A DNA stretch of 41,475 nt, taken from the sequence record NC_021857.1, one strand, 5' to 3'. This DNA comes from Shigella phage SfII. Within the stretch, counting starts at the first letter, position 1. Every line of letters begins with the position of its first letter. The position numbers are program-made. Of this stretch, positions 18,001-27,000 are shown one piece after another.

Positions 18001-21000
18001 AAACCCGAGTGGCCTATGCATCCAAATAAATAGACTTGTTAATCTAGGATAATTGTTGGAATAATACTCATTTTTCAGTAGGTTCAGGTAGCCTGGGTAT
18101 AATGCTCACTTCTACAATGATTTCAACTTATTTTATTTAATTGATATTACGAAACTTAACTCATACATAAACAATATGACCCAATACTGTCCTAAATAGC
18201 TGCGCAGAAAAGTGCTCCACTTTCGCTCAGCCCTTGCTGGGCGAAGCATCAGGAAGGCGTTCTCAGCTAGGTTGTGTTATATCTGGCTTGAGTTTTGTTG
18301 CCCATACGCAACACATTACCCATCTGTAAACGACAAGTGTGGCAGAATTAGGTGCAGCTATTTAGACTATATCGACGCAGTAACGATAATAGATATCGAA
18401 ACTGTACTAGATATTAGCTACTTATGGTTGCCGGGGGGAGTCTTTTGAGCACTGGTGTTATCAATCGGCTTCAAATAATTCACCAATAAATTATATTGCG
18501 ATAGCTCATCACCTTCCAGGTTGTTTATAGCCAGTTTATCAGCGTCACCACCTACTGTTTATGCTTTTATTTCTTTGATTAATAAGTATATGATATTTTA
18601 ATTCATCTGGTGTATTTCTTTCTCATGTGTTGGTCGACTGAATATCTGTTCAGTGAAGGGGTAATTTTATGTTTGCACTTCGAACATTCCCTTCAGTTGC
18701 TAGGAAAGAAAACCGTAACATTTGCGCATTAATTTTAACAGTATAATCTGAGCATAAATATGCGCTATATATCTATAAAAAGGCGCAATTAATTGCGCCT
18801 TTTTATCATTTTATCAAAAATGGCCCACCGACTGTCCTCGATAGCCAATGGCCAATTTTATCTGATACATATACACAAATACAGGTATATATGATTGAGC
18901 AGATAGGATTTGGAATAGTCACGCTGAAGCCTATAATTGCTAAAGCCATAGGGATAAATAATTTGGTGATATACTCCATTCCACATATGTTAAGAGTATT
19001 TCTTCCAGCTCTTACAATAAAGTCATTTCCACAAATTATTTTTGCTATGAAAATATTAAAGATTATCAAGCCTACCGTGGTGATAATAGTATTAATAGCT
19101 TGAATATAACTACTTGATATTATGTCTGCATTGAATATTGAGATAATCTTAAAAAGTAAAGGTTTCTGGTTAAGTAGTTGATACGCACTCATTATAGCGG
19201 TAATTGAGAAGACAATGAAACCAATTTTAGATTTTCCAAAAAACCTGTCACGTGTTAATTCTAAAAACATACATCTACCGAGAGGCAATAACCACCAGTA
19301 TGCCATAGCGGAGTCTATGTTCCAAAACCATTGAGGATCTAGTAATGGGTTATGATTGAGCACTGTTTGTGACAACATGAACGATAACAGTGATATGATT
19401 AAAATCACTATATTGTTCTTGACTATTTCTCTAAAGATTGCATCAATTGCTATTATAACAAAAAGGCAGTTTATAAACCATATTGTTCCTACGAATTGGT
19501 TATTTCTAACACCATATATTATATCATAAATGTGGTTGTATATATAATCAATCGTCTCACCTGAGTTAATTGTGTTTATTATTAATATAGAAAATGCAAA
19601 AGTGAAATATGGAATCATTAATCTGTAAAACTTTGACTTGATATAATCGAAAATAGATAAGTCATTTTTTTTGATAGTAAAAAAACCAGCAGCGAAAAAG
19701 AATAGTGGGACGTGATAACTAAAAACAAAAGGATACAATTTGCCAGCCCCCAACCCAAGGTGACCTAAATATATAGCAAAAATACCGAGAAATTTTAAAG
19801 CATCAACCCAATCATGTCTTATTTTTCTGTTGCTGTCGATTTTGTTATTATACATTTAAAGTAGGCTCTCCAGTTTTGTGTGATTTTTAAACACTCATTG
19901 CAAATATGAATGCCTGAAAGTTTATGATTATTAATCAACGAGTTCAATATTAATTTATTATTTTTCAAAGTCGCACTATATAGGCATTTACTTCCGCAGT
20001 ACCACCGATAGTATCGATATCAAATCAGCCTGCGGCCGCGATAACTTTCGTAACATTCTGCCAGCGGCTTTGTTGAATAAATCAGGTTCAAGATAATCGT
20101 CTCTGCATCAGGTTAGAGTTTCAGGCAATACATCCTCTTTCTGGCATACCTGCCACTCTAGCACCATGGTCATAGCCTTTACGATCTGCATACTCACCAG
20201 ACCAGAGCCCGATCCATTTTAGGATGAGGAATCCCCAGAAAAGAAGACAGGCAGAGGGAGGCTTGTGATCTAATGATTGCGCTAACAAATTCAATGAGAT
20301 CACCTCTATGCCTGCCCGTAAAGTATGCCAGACTTTTTTCCGTAATGCTTTAGCTTCCACGCATCAGTATCGACAAAATGCCATTATTGATTCTGCTGCT
20401 GCTTTAGTCGGTGGCGCATCTCTTTCTCTTACCAGCATTGGCCGGCATTTACCCGGTCCTGCTCGCGTGAAAGATAAAATAAAACGCGTTGACCGTCTGT
20501 TGGGTAATAAACGACTTCATAATGATATCCCTCTGATATTCAAAAATATTACATCCATGATGACAAATAAACTGTCGTGGTGTGTTATCGCTGTTGACTG
20601 GAGCGGTTACCCTTTTCAGGAATATCATGTCCTTCGTGCCAGCCTCCTCTGCGACGGTCGCTCTATCCCCCTGATGAGTCAGGTCTTCCCGTCAAAAAAA
20701 AATAACGAGGCGGTGGAAATCGCTTTTCTGGATGCGCTTTCCGGGGCCATTTCTCCCCGGACTCGTGTTGTTATTGTTACTGATGCTGGTTTTCAAAGTG
20801 CATGGTTCCGTCATATCAAATCACAGGGATGGGATTTTATTGGTCGTATCAGGGGGGTAGTGAAGTTCAGGCTGGATAGTGACAAAGATAAGTGGCTGGA
20901 CATAAAAATGTGCAGGGGGAGTTCAGAGGCAAAATACCTGGAGACGGGAACCCTGGCCCGGAAAAAACGCTCGCAGTGTGAAGGACATTTTTATCTTTAT

Positions 21001-24000: not shown

Positions 24001-27000
24001 CAATAGGAATTACAGCATCGCCGCTTGCATGGTCTAACCCTGCAAATAAGGCTGGTTCTTTACCAAAGTTGCGTGTAAATGACAGCGGAACAACTAGCGG
24101 GTCTGAAACAGCCAGCGCGTTAATAATTGACTCTGTGGCATCTTTACTTCCGTCATTTATGAATACAATTTCTACTTCATATGGCTTCAACTCTTGGAAT
24201 TCACGTACCGTTTTATAGAAAACAGGTATCGCTTCTTCTTCATTGAAGACAGGAACGACAAGAGATATTTTCATTTCGCATCCCTAAAGACAATGAACTT
24301 TGAATAGACGAAACCGCACACCAGACTGATGGCGGAGAAGGTGATAAGAGTGACTATTGGAGGAAGTGAGCATTTATCAGCTGCCCAACCAACAATCACA
24401 CTCAATATTCCCATAAATCCCACGTAATACATGTAGCGCATCGCTGTAGTCGATGCTTTGAATGTGAATCTTGCATTCGCGAAGAAGCTAAAGCTCACAG
24501 CCACTACGAAACCTGTGAAGTTTGCCAGAGCCTGACTGGTATGTGCGGCATAGATACATACACCAAAAACCACCCAGTGTATAAGTGTGTTCAGCACACC
24601 TATAGATGTGTACTTTACAAATAACTTTAACATTTATTTAATCAATGAGCTCTGAAAGGCATGAAGTCTATCATCCAAGTCTCAATTGATCGATACTTGC
24701 TATGTCTGATGAGACAAAACTGAGACACATAAGGCCTCACAATGGCTTGCAAGGCTTTACATGTTTTGATGTGGTGGGACGTGTGAGCGCAGTGTTGATG
24801 GGATAATCCTTTGAATTACAAGCGGATTCTTATAATTCGTAATGCGAAGGTCGTAGGTTCGACTCCTATTATCGGCACCATTTAAATCAATAAGTTACAC
24901 ATCATTAGTACCTTCCTTATTTTTTGACTGGGACAAATTTGGGACCGATGGGTTCAGGATCGAGTCTATTTGCCGTGCATGTTCGGTAAGGTGATTAGGT
25001 GCGAGGTGAGCATATCGACGAACCATTTCGATAGACTCCCAGCCTCCCATTTCCTGTAACACTGACAACGGGACTCCGGCTTGAACCAGCCAACTTGCCC
25101 AGGTGTGTCTCAAGTCGTGAAATCTGAAATCATCAATACCTGCTCGTCTCAGCGCCGCTTTCCAGGCTGTGTTTGCGTCATACCGCATCTTCCTGACCGT
25201 TGGCGCTTTCGTTCCGTCTGGTTTGGTACAGCTTTCCTTGTAAACAAATACCCAACGGTGATGATTCCCGATTTGTTTTTTCAATACGCGACATGCAGTA
25301 TCATTCAGCGCAACGCCAATTGCGCGGTTTGATTTACTCTCTTCCGGGTTTATCCATGCCACCCGGCGCTGCATATCTATTTGTTGCCATTCAAGGTTGA
25401 TGATGTTCGAGCGTCTTAAGCCTGTTGCCAGTGCAAATTCAACAACAGACTTTAATGGCTCCGGACATTCATCAATCAGCCTTTGTGCTTCATGGGGCTC
25501 CAGCCAGCGGATCCGTTTATTCTTTGGTTGAGGCACTTTAATAATTGGTGCCTTATCCAGCATTTTCCATTCACGCTCTGCGGCTCTTAGTAGGGCCTTT
25601 ATAAATGAAAGATGCGTAGCCTTCGTTGCAACGGACGCTGGTTTTGGCGTGTATTCTGGAACAGGTTTCCCTTTTTTTCTGCATGCTTCTGCCCTGAGTT
25701 TCCAGTTTTCCTCATGACGCCGGTTCGTCATTTTCTGCATTGCTGAATAAATTTTTGATTCAGTGATGTCTCTTAGTTGCATCCCTGCGAAATGTTGAAG
25801 CCAGAATCCGATCCGGCTTTTGTCATCGTCCAGTGATTTCTTATGTGCTTTCTCTTCGAGCCACCTGACACACGCTTCCTCAAACGTCATATCAGGTATT
25901 TCACCAAGTTTGCTGACCCGCCATGCTTCAGCCTTTAGCTTGTCATGGAGCTCTGTCGCCTGCCTTTTGTCCTTTGTTCCAAGAGACTGTTTAAATCTTT
26001 TACCGTTCGGCAATGTGAAACTGGCGTACCATATTTCACTTCTGCGGAAGAGTGACATTTTCTTTCCTCTGTTATGCCATCACCCGCGCTCACCTGGACA
26101 GTATGCAGCGGAGACTGAAGAGCCGCAATGCAGGCTTGTCGTGTTGTGAGGTAAGGAGATTTATTCTTAGTGGGATCTTTGCGTGTTGCCTGAAGACGCC
26201 CTGTGCGTATCCAGTTAATGGCAGTCGGTCTGGATATCTTGAGAAAATGACAGGCCTCATCGAGTGTGAGGCTGTATGGCTCCATTATTTCACCTCTTGT
26301 TGTGACATTGTTGAAAAATGGATACCAGCTCGTTGCTGCCAGACGATCCATCCGAGAGTCATATCCCATGCCATGTATTCGTTATCGCCGTTTTTTGCTC
26401 TCCGACGATCTACTAAGTCACCGAAACGCTTTTCCATGAATAATTCATAAGCTTCGCGTTCATCTGGTTCTACTTCCAGAGATAGGAGTGCGATTTCATA
26501 AGCACGGCGCTCAATATCGTCTCGCACGTCAAGGCTGCTGATACGCTCTTTAATTTCTTTAATCAGTTCTTTGTCGGTAAAAGTGGTCATTATGCTCCAG
26601 CCTCCGGTGCTTTTGGCATTACTGCCCAGTGAGTGATATTGACGTTTTCAAGGTCCCCGACCTGAAATGTCCACTGCCATTCTCCGGTTTCTTTTTGTCC
26701 CCAGGTGTACCAGAGAGAACGCCAGTCAATTAGCCAGCCTTCTCCGTTAGCATCGAATAACAAAACACTTTCATTTGCTGGTGGCAGTTCAGTTGACACT
26801 GGTATTACTTTGTTTTCCTGTGCTGCACATTTAGCTTCAAGCGCATCGAATTTACGCACCAGGTATTCAGCATCTGTTTCATTCACTTTCAGATCTCGCG
26901 GTACACATCTCCCACGAAGAAACCCTTCCATTTCGAAAACATTCATGCGCATTTGCGTAACTCCGATAACTCGTTAAAACGTTCCATAAACATCCCGTAG

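Follow-up and report, generated by a model that had tools for sequence, protein, structure and literature searches.

What does Shigella phage SfII carry between its tail genes and its attachment site, and did the insertion sequence found there bring it in? The window analysed is the whole 41,475-nucleotide stretch (NC_021857.1), in which an initial annotation had placed, just beyond the tail-fibre module and next to int and attP, an O-antigen modification cargo of five genes separated by an insertion sequence. The position is correct, since the tail-fibre gene and the tail-fibre assembly gene precede the region, and the five ORFs are all present, their outer coordinates exactly as given there, each with a significant family match. 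The features of the region are as follows.

16977-17627: tail-fibre gene
17536-18033: tail-fibre assembly gene
18034-18805, no strand assigned: non-coding spacer of 772 bp, from the tail-fibre assembly gene to the 3' end of oacD
18775-18806, no strand assigned: hairpin, a GC-rich palindrome flanked by A/T runs that abuts the oacD stop codon
18806-19855, minus strand: oacD (SfII_25), acyltransferase-3 family O-antigen O-acetyltransferase, 349 aa
19856-20040, minus strand: oacD upstream region, AT-rich (about 27% GC in 19856-19990), presumed promoter location
20041-20219, minus strand: left part of an IS903-like (IS5 family) transposase remnant, degenerate
20221-21526, plus strand: ISSfl9, IS4-family insertion sequence of about 1.3 kb with 22-nt imperfect inverted repeats
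20308-21498, plus strand: ISSfl9 transposase (SfII_26), intact, 396 aa
21529-21590, minus strand: right part of the IS903-like remnant
21780-21796, minus strand: short GC hairpin, some 90 nt beyond the gtrII stop codon
21888-23348, minus strand: gtrII (SfII_27), serotype-specific O-antigen glucosyltransferase, 486 aa, multi-pass membrane protein
23345-24274, minus strand: gtrB (bgt), bactoprenol-phosphate glucosyltransferase, GT2, 309 aa
24271-24633, minus strand: gtrA, small membrane protein of 120 aa, proposed undecaprenyl-phosphate-glucose flippase
24835-24880, plus strand: attP core (46 nt), a perfect copy of the 3' part of a tRNA-Thr gene
24895-26058, minus strand: int, tyrosine integrase

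We are nearly certain that this region is the lysogenic-conversion cargo of S. flexneri phage SfII, with two independent O-antigen modification modules lying between the tail genes and attP/int. The locus is known, published and experimentally characterised: it adds glucose (gtrA-gtrB-gtrII) and acetyl (oacD) to the host O-antigen. An exact-sequence look-up matched the oacD, transposase and gtrII products to the Shigella phage SfII proteins AGQ45515, AGQ45516 and AGQ45517, the stretch 21513-24900 shares 100% DNA identity with AF021347, and the SfII genome paper (41,475 bp) counts an acyltransferase (SfII_25), a transposase (SfII_26) and gtrII (SfII_27) among the unique genes. The same layout, gtrA-gtrB-gtrII-IS-oacD, recurs in six independent assemblies, and comparison of the window with six prophage copies found 18 differing positions in 8.9 kb, with no gene disrupted. 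Probable sequencing errors cluster at 20160-20273. The reading as the cargo of a serotype-converting phage beside int and attP is borne out by the families of the gtr cluster, the attP core, int and the identity with SfII. The description of five AT-rich membrane-protein genes on the minus strand holds for strand and membrane character in four of them, but the transposase gene is on the plus strand and its product is not a membrane protein. AT-richness is strong for oacD (31.4% GC) and gtrII (31.8%) only, against 49.2% GC for the whole window; gtrB (42.4%), gtrA (43.0%) and the insertion sequence (45.2%) do not share it.

The attachment site is of the tRNA-targeting type, as in P22 and SfV. 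The 46-nt core is 100% identical to annotated tRNA-Thr genes and occurs in 5016 of the 5426 complete E. coli genomes; in both L009 and E. coli A21 the junction between prophage and host falls exactly at this core, and the annotation of AF021347 puts attP at positions 24829-24849 of the window. The integrase (PF00589, 5e-48) is encoded by a gene with 98% nucleotide identity to SfV int.

Adjoining attP and int, the gtr cluster has the co-oriented order gtrA, gtrB and a type-specific polytopic Gtr gene. The gtrA-gtrB-gtr(type) cassettes of SfV, SfI and SfIV occupy the same slot, from the tail-fibre assembly gene to attP/int, and gtrA, gtrB, attP and int of SfII are 98-99.6% identical to their SfV and SfI counterparts (nucleotide identity for gtrA and gtrB) and 91% to those of SfIV. 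Homology search of the 486-aa Gtr identifies it as GtrII: its gene has 100% DNA identity to gtrII of AF021347, the protein is exactly AGQ45517.1 (YP_008318505.1) and it matches PF14264 Glucos_trans_II (1.8e-30, 106.6 bits). GtrB belongs to PF00535 Glycos_transf_2 (7e-31) and has two C-terminal hydrophobic segments (residues 231-254 and 261-286), while GtrA matches PF04138 GtrA_DPMS_TM (6e-14) and has counterparts in SfV and SfI annotated as gtrA or flippase. The three genes form a translationally coupled operon, in which gtrB overlaps gtrA and gtrII by 4 nt each. Its terminator is likely to be the hairpin at 21780-21796 (AGGGGCATTCAGCCCCT, from a terminator scan), which is followed by TTTAAATA on the minus strand. 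At the cytoplasmic face GtrB makes undecaprenyl-phosphate-glucose, GtrA would flip it to the periplasmic face, and the polytopic GtrII places the glucose on rhamnose I of the O-unit to give the type II antigen. Glucosylation of RhaI by SfII gtrIIBA (type II antigen) is described in passages of PMC8973906, PMC9558356 and PMC8952252; the modified sugar positions given here and below are taken from published experiments.

The presence of an extra acyltransferase had suggested a second O-antigen modification, acetylation, from the same phage, and this proved correct. Its 349-aa product is exactly the SfII acyltransferase AGQ45515.1, which by sequence identifies it as OacD, the O-antigen GlcNAc 6-O-acetyltransferase, with the catalysis known from the literature. 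OacD of S. flexneri and SfII (Sun et al. 2014, J Bacteriol 196:3656; KC736978) is the same gene at the same place upstream of gtrII. On SfII it leads to 6-O-acetylation of GlcNAc and O-factor 10 (Sun et al. 2014, as related in passages of PMC8973906, PMC9558356 and PMC8952252), and a passage of PMC8623282 reports that GlcNAc O-acetylation disappears from the 1H NMR of an S. flexneri 2a oacD deletion mutant. The protein shares at least 98% identity with its S. flexneri and E. coli copies and matches Pfam PF01757 Acyl_transf_3 over residues 15-287 (2.2e-12, 47.1 bits against a gathering cut-off of 31), a domain found in 87 of the 87 homologues retrieved. Its AF2 model (pLDDT 94.2, pTM 0.91) is all-helical, with about ten long helices. 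Among PDB folds, human HGSNAT ranks on top (probability 1.00, TM 0.48-0.52; next matches below TM 0.25) and is the sole confident match, with weak Foldseek E-values (0.04-0.12). This fold match (TM about 0.5) comes with a sequence identity of 11-12%, and HGSNAT, at about 540 aa, is the larger protein and has additional domains. It is a lysosomal transmembrane enzyme that transfers the acetyl group of cytosolic acetyl-CoA to a sugar across the membrane.

The motifs of acyltransferase-3 proteins are given in a passage of PMC9558356 as R/K-X10-H in the first helix and RXXR in the first cytoplasmic loop. The former is present in OacD as K21-X10-H32, with H32 invariant and K21 at least 90% conserved among 50 homologues. 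In place of the latter, OacD has a KxxR variant (K75, R78) before the invariant P82, in agreement with a passage of PMC8952252 in which one arginine of RXXR is replaced by lysine. The ORF is intact, and every residue invariant across the 50 homologues is present. OacD is a stand-alone membrane enzyme of about ten helices. It would carry acetyl from cytoplasmic acetyl-CoA across the membrane, probably with the invariant His32 of the first helix as acetyl relay, and it places the acetyl on O-6 of GlcNAc to give group O-factor 10. Together, the gtr and oacD modules convert serotype Y into 2a variants.

The 772-bp spacer (36.8% GC) holds no ORF with a family match and has no match in 50,697 phage records by distant blastn; it is missing in SfV, where homology stops at 18014. 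It forms part of the oacD module, and in both L001 and L002, which are E. coli prophages, it is contiguous with oacD. At its end, the hairpin at 18775-18806 (14 pairs with a loop of 4, ATAAAAAGGCGCAATTAATTGCGCCTTTTTAT, from the terminator scan) looks like a bidirectional intrinsic terminator, and its Rfam matches, all sub-threshold, are to terminator-like sRNA 3' ends. On the other side, a GGAGAG ribosome-binding site can be read 10 nt ahead of the oacD ATG, and the oacD promoter is presumed to lie within 19856-20040, which is conserved with an ISSfl9-free E. coli prophage. The consensus scan gave no strong sigma-70 match at 19856-20040 and no oacD or gtrA promoter above its threshold (26 matches in the region compared with 25.0 expected in shuffled sequence); the promoter positions proposed here are putative. 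Expression of both modules would come from the prophage and run in the direction opposite to that of the late operon.

Could this acyltransferase nevertheless act on another substrate (peptidoglycan, ECA or capsule), or be inactive in this isolate? A functional parallel to weigh is Oac (OacA) of Sf6, which like OacD is a stand-alone PF01757 membrane protein encoded by a phage lysogenic-conversion gene near int, and which also acetylates the S. flexneri O-antigen. The two differ in target (O-2 of RhaI for Oac, O-6 of GlcNAc for OacD) and in motif (RXXR in Oac, KxxR in OacD). BLASTP finds no significant pairwise similarity between them (E = 0.42), so that a transfer of function from Oac goes through shared family and fold only. 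In P22-like E. coli prophages, the Sf6-type position, with int on one side and tailspike on the other, is taken by a relative 42% identical to OacD. Acyltransferase-3 proteins as a group have many substrates, a passage of PMC8952252 puts OacD at 13% identity to Oac and OacB, and some relatives at 51-57% identity sit in non-phage chromosomal contexts. Against these readings, the published genetics and NMR tie oacD to O-antigen GlcNAc 6-O-acetylation, a 6-O-acetyl-GlcNAc signal that depends on this gene having been reported for the prophage copy. The intact ORF also keeps all the residues invariant in the 50 homologues and differs by at most 2% from other S. flexneri copies. We consider either departure from the published function extremely unlikely.

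The insertion sequence between the two modules, annotated as a complete IS10-family element, does look complete, with both inverted repeats (20221-20242 and 21505-21526, 91% complementary) and an intact transposase ORF, but it is ISSfl9 and is IS10-like at subgroup level only. This curated name comes from the exact-sequence look-up and PGAP annotation. Its transposase is exactly AGQ45516.1, with identical copies on 27 other contigs, and matches DDE_Tnp_1 (2.9e-19) and the NCBIfam IS4-family model NF033591 (363 bits against a cut-off of 152); it is 35% identical to the IS10A transposase over 89% of its length and 62% to that of ISSfl1. Like IS10 and ISSfl1, ISSfl9 has a single ORF for an IS4-family DDE transposase in about 1.3 kb, and its ends, with CTGAGG..ATCCCC, resemble those of IS10. 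The end AGGCTGAGGAATCCCC recurs, exactly or with 1-3 mismatches, in copies in other contexts; the exact ends are ambiguous by 1-4 bp. In E. coli the empty site reads CTCCCTTT joined directly to CGGGGAGG, giving a net insertion of 1309 bp. IS10 makes a perfect 9-bp target-site duplication. At CTGAGG...CCTCAG of ISSfl9 a clean 9-bp duplication is absent: the flanks CCTTTTAGG and CCTTTCGGG agree at 7/9 positions in the prophage copies, and agreement is 6/9 in the window and 6/9 in an E. fergusonii plasmid copy.

Did ISSfl9 bring in oacD or join it to gtr, for instance as part of a composite transposon? An element with both ends and an intact transposase, placed exactly between two modules of about 31% GC that are clearly foreign to the phage, invites this reading, and the initial annotation had suggested that it may have delivered or rearranged them. 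The window holds a single copy of ISSfl9, however, and the spacer-oacD-remnant block, 97-98% identical, adjoins a gtrA/gtrB cluster without ISSfl9 in E. coli prophages (L001, H34-H40), where the empty site matches both flanks of the window. At least seven E. coli genomes carrying the same oacD block have this ISSfl9-free site, which identifies ISSfl9 as a later simple insertion. The element it interrupts is an older IS903-like fragment: with ISSfl9 excised in silico, the remnant has about 76% nucleotide identity to IS903, its left part translates with an ADRKGYDHG motif and several stops, and in E. coli YZ_2_2 this DNA is labelled by PGAP as a partial IS5/IS1182 transposase with a frameshift. 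A founding role for ISSfl9 is therefore not supported, and we judge it highly improbable; ISSfl9 would be a secondary and functionally neutral insertion into the older remnant between the modules. Some insertion sequence different from ISSfl9 may still have taken part in the original assembly, as the oacD/gtr junction is precisely where the IS903-like fragment is found. By this account the IS903-like element mediated the capture of oacD beside gtr, and the oacD block became a portable cassette that was later combined with different type-specific gtr genes, through recombination in the conserved DNA on either side, namely the tail-fibre assembly gene and gtrB. The gtr gene beside oacD in the ISSfl9-free E. 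coli prophages indeed differs from gtrII, and the remnant marks the oacD boundary in both the gtrII and the DUF6056-type contexts. Positions 21524-21601 are 100% identical to L001 and then diverge; homology with this alternative gtr module ends at 21601, in or just past the remnant, and restarts at 23370 in gtrB. SfV has none of this block, the breakpoints being 18014 and 23367: a shorter terminator-plus-gtrV segment stands there in place of SfII 18015-23366, and what SfII has in addition is the spacer, oacD, the IS903-like remnant, ISSfl9 and a different type-specific gene. On the other hand, all that is left of the IS903-like element is a short piece from inside its transposase gene, and IS903 ends or target duplications were not identified at the remnant, which makes its role circumstantial; we regard IS903-mediated capture as a tentative possibility, somewhat less probable than its contrary.

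Two further observations concern other genes: Q and the lysis genes flank a candidate PDC-M53 defence gene pair, and a PDC-S45-like protease gene is interrupted by an IS3-family element.

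The region at 18806–24633 is a well-known, experimentally characterized locus, and the initial annotation, which read it as an O-antigen modification island, is correct. The five ORFs have the outer coordinates it claimed, and each of the five gives a significant family match.

Genes of the O-antigen modification locus, with best family matches
18806–19855, minus strand: acyltransferase (OacD), 349 aa; Acyl_transf_3
20308–21498, plus strand: transposase, 396 aa; IS4-family DDE transposase
21888–23348, minus strand: GtrII, 486 aa; Glucos_trans_II
23345–24274, minus strand: GtrB, 309 aa; Glycos_transf_2
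24271–24633, minus strand: GtrA, 120 aa; GtrA

The region follows directly on a tail-fibre gene and a tail-fibre assembly gene and is itself followed by a tyrosine integrase. The description of the locus as five minus-strand genes for membrane proteins has to be amended, as the transposase is a non-membrane protein encoded on the plus strand; likewise, 'AT-rich' applies to oacD (31.4% GC) and gtrII (31.8%) but not to gtrB (42.4%), gtrA (43.0%) or the insertion sequence (45.2%; genome 49.2%). An exact-sequence look-up returned Shigella phage SfII entries for the acyltransferase (AGQ45515.1), the transposase (AGQ45516.1) and the serotype-specific glucosyltransferase (AGQ45517.1/YP_008318505.1), and the corresponding genes SfII_25, SfII_26 and SfII_27 are among those listed as unique to SfII in the genome announcement (KC736978; PMC3772137). 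Moreover, 21513–24900 is 100% identical to AF021347, the 1997 SfII fragment carrying gtrII, bgt, attP and int. No record in the phage collection that we compared covers at least 80% of the window, the full SfII record being absent from it.

The arrangement of gtrA, gtrB and a type-specific gtr gene beside attP and int is borne out by the family matches, the attP core and the adjoining integrase. The gtrA/gtrB and gtrB/gtrII junctions both overlap by 4 nt, which indicates a single translationally coupled operon. In SfV and SfI, gtrA, gtrB, attP and int are 98–99.6% identical to those of SfII. The attP core (24835–24880) consists of 46 nt identical to annotated tRNA-Thr genes; it is present in 5016 of 5426 complete E. 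coli genomes, and phage homology in integrated copies stops exactly there. A tRNA scan of the window and of the prophage loci found none, as expected for an attP and a gtrA-side junction with only part of the tRNA. The terminator scan gave a GC hairpin after gtrII (21780–21796) and a 14-bp palindromic hairpin (18775–18806) that adjoins the stop codon of oacD and resembles a bidirectional terminator parting oacD from the late operon. Over 17900–25000, Rfam in E-value mode gave only sub-threshold matches (an IS009 fragment within the tail-fibre assembly gene and terminator-like sRNA 3′ ends on the 18775–18806 hairpin), and we claim no RNA element. The Salmonella-type signature of Dam/OxyR phase variation consists of four GATC sites; only one, at 24688, lies upstream of gtrA, and we do not propose this mode of control here.

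Judged from its sequence, the 349-aa acyltransferase is OacD, the second O-antigen modifier that the initial annotation had expected. It shares at least 98% identity with the S. flexneri and E. coli copies; the next-closest relatives (Buttiauxella, Erwinia, Leclercia and Proteus) are only 57% identical, and PF01757 was found in all 87 relatives. Its similarity to characterized Oac proteins stands at the level of this family, but not in a direct comparison: OacD and the classic Sf6 Oac are not significantly similar as a pair (E = 0.42), consistent with the 13% identity reported between OacD and OacB (PMC8952252). P22-like E. coli prophages do carry a 42%-identical relative where Sf6 has oac, with int on one side and the tailspike gene on the other. 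NCBIfam has no model matching OacD, GtrII or GtrA. Functionally, oacD on SfII confers 6-O-acetylation of GlcNAc, group O-factor 10, according to Sun et al. (2014) as cited in PMC8973906, PMC9558356 and PMC8952252. Deletion of oacD from S. flexneri 2a abolishes the 1H NMR signal of the GlcNAc O-acetyl group, and a ΔoacB ΔoacD double mutant is devoid of any O-acetyl (PMC8623282).

The OacD sequence has no match in the PDB, and a fold search was therefore used instead. The AlphaFold model (50 homologues; pLDDT 94.2, pTM 0.91) is all-helical with about ten long helices, and the only solved structures that it matches with confidence are cryo-EM structures of the human transmembrane acetyltransferase HGSNAT (probability 1.00, TM 0.48–0.52, the following matches having TM < 0.25). 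The AT3 motif R/K-X10-H corresponds to K21-X10-H32, with H32 invariant throughout the alignment; in place of the RXXR motif stands KxxR. Acetyl groups from cytoplasmic acetyl-CoA would cross the AT3 helical bundle by way of His32 to reach O-6 of GlcNAc, the published acetylation site. On the glucosylation side, it is established that GtrB makes undecaprenyl-phosphate-glucose and that GtrII glucosylates RhaI, while GtrA would act as the flippase. Each module, oacD and gtr, would have its own promoter; a consensus promoter scan gave matches no more often than in shuffled sequences, and neither oacD nor gtrA has a convincing one upstream.

The element between the two modules, taken initially for a member of the IS10 family, is ISSfl9; its transposase is 35% identical to that of IS10A and 62% to that of ISSfl1. 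A literature search on ISSfl9 gave no match. The suggestion that the element delivered the modules does not hold. The segment specific to SfII relative to SfV spans 18015–23366; in SfV the tail-fibre assembly gene is followed directly by a terminator and gtrV. The whole SfII-type block occurs in three complete E. coli genomes (98.5–98.7% identity), and in the one examined, strain A21, ISSfl9 is present with a frameshifted transposase. ISSfl9 is missing from seven or more further E. coli genomes that carry the spacer and oacD, together with the downstream remnant, at 97–98% identity. When occupied sites are aligned with empty ones, the empty site reads CTCCCTTT|CGGGGAGG, and the insertion amounts to a net 1309 bp. 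From these ISSfl9-free blocks and the empty site it follows that ISSfl9 is a late, simple insertion that delivered neither module. Several models of its ends and duplication were compared and none gave identical repeats, so that a clean target duplication was not found; the 9-bp flanks match at seven of nine positions in the prophage copies, and the ends of the element can be placed only to within 1–4 bp.

The DNA interrupted by ISSfl9 (20041–20219 and 21529–21590) is a degenerate IS903-like transposase fragment (about 76% identity to IS903), named by PGAP a partial IS5/IS1182 transposase. At 21601 the gtrII context loses its homology to the alternative gtr context, so that the remnant marks the module boundary; it may be a trace of the original capture event. 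The alternative context is that of E. coli YZ_2_2 (NZ_CM146015.1, 6407–10689), the one ISSfl9-free genome examined; in a degraded SfV/e14-like prophage, a 98% identical oacD block adjoins a different type-specific gtr gene (encoding a 413-aa DUF6056 protein), with gtrB and gtrA after it. OacD-type acetylation may therefore accompany another, uncharacterized glucosylation in E. coli. The 772-bp spacer (18034–18805) has no family match, contains only short ORFs and shows no similarity among 50,697 phage records; it is kept with oacD in the E. coli prophages at 97–98% identity.

We may wonder whether ISSfl9, 365 bp upstream of oacD, alters its expression. By analogy with IS10, an outward promoter at the left end of the element could face oacD; alternatively, the element could shield oacD from read-through of the gtr operon. 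GlcNAc 6-O-acetylation would then reach different levels in S. flexneri prophages with ISSfl9 and E. coli prophages without it. On a wider view, the spacer, oacD and the IS903 remnant would form a portable cassette pairing with various gtr types. We regard this reading as a whole as distinctly unlikely. By eye, two GATC sites can be seen in the stretch that separates the left inverted repeat from the start codon of the transposase (20255–20305), reminiscent of the IS10 transposase promoter, which is under the control of Dam methylation.

The left end of ISSfl9 also concentrates differences between the window and a near-identical S. flexneri prophage, compared over 8.9 kb: ten of the 18 fall within 114 bp (20160–20273). 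At the positions each of them covers, the window is contradicted by six prophage copies, by E. coli A21, by the flank from ISSfl9-free E. coli and by the copy on an E. fergusonii plasmid, and the IS terminus is affected (AGGATGAGG in the window versus AGGCTGAGG in the other copies). These differences are probably Sanger read errors in the deposited SfII sequence rather than biology.

Of all Shigella serotypes S. flexneri 2a has the highest prevalence, and vaccines are aimed mainly at its O-antigen. The epitopes of type II and O-factor 10 are determined by gtrII and oacD, which also affect susceptibility to phage Sf6. Their roles are already published and are in use for vaccine strain engineering (PMC8623282, PMC9243986, PMC8973906). 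Our analysis adds only small refinements: the insertion sequence is ISSfl9 and entered an IS903-like remnant late, E. coli prophages have the oacD block beside another gtr type as well, and a patch of the deposited sequence probably consists of read errors.

Elsewhere in the window, a low-GC (about 32%) minus-strand gene pair at 35581–37195 (ORFs 36173–37195 and 35581–36165) occupies the 'moron' slot between antiterminator Q (35251–35577) and the lysis cassette (37481 onward). It matches the PADLOC candidate anti-phage defence pair PDC-M53A (2.1e-32) and PDC-M53B (2.8e-54), and may be among the hypothetical proteins listed as unique to SfII in the genome paper. Neither protein has a Pfam match above threshold, the hydrophobic 194-aa protein giving only Fijivirus_P9-2 below the cut-off. 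Finally, a trypsin-like serine protease gene (38887–41049), a match to the PADLOC single-gene candidate PDC-S45, lies in two parts:

Parts of the PDC-S45-like protease gene
38887–39174: N-terminal part, profile positions 6–78 of 293
40429–41049: C-terminal part, profile positions 100–282 of 293

The gene is interrupted by an IS3-family element on the minus strand, with orfA at 39976–40314 and orfB, itself broken into two ORFs, at 39109–39949.
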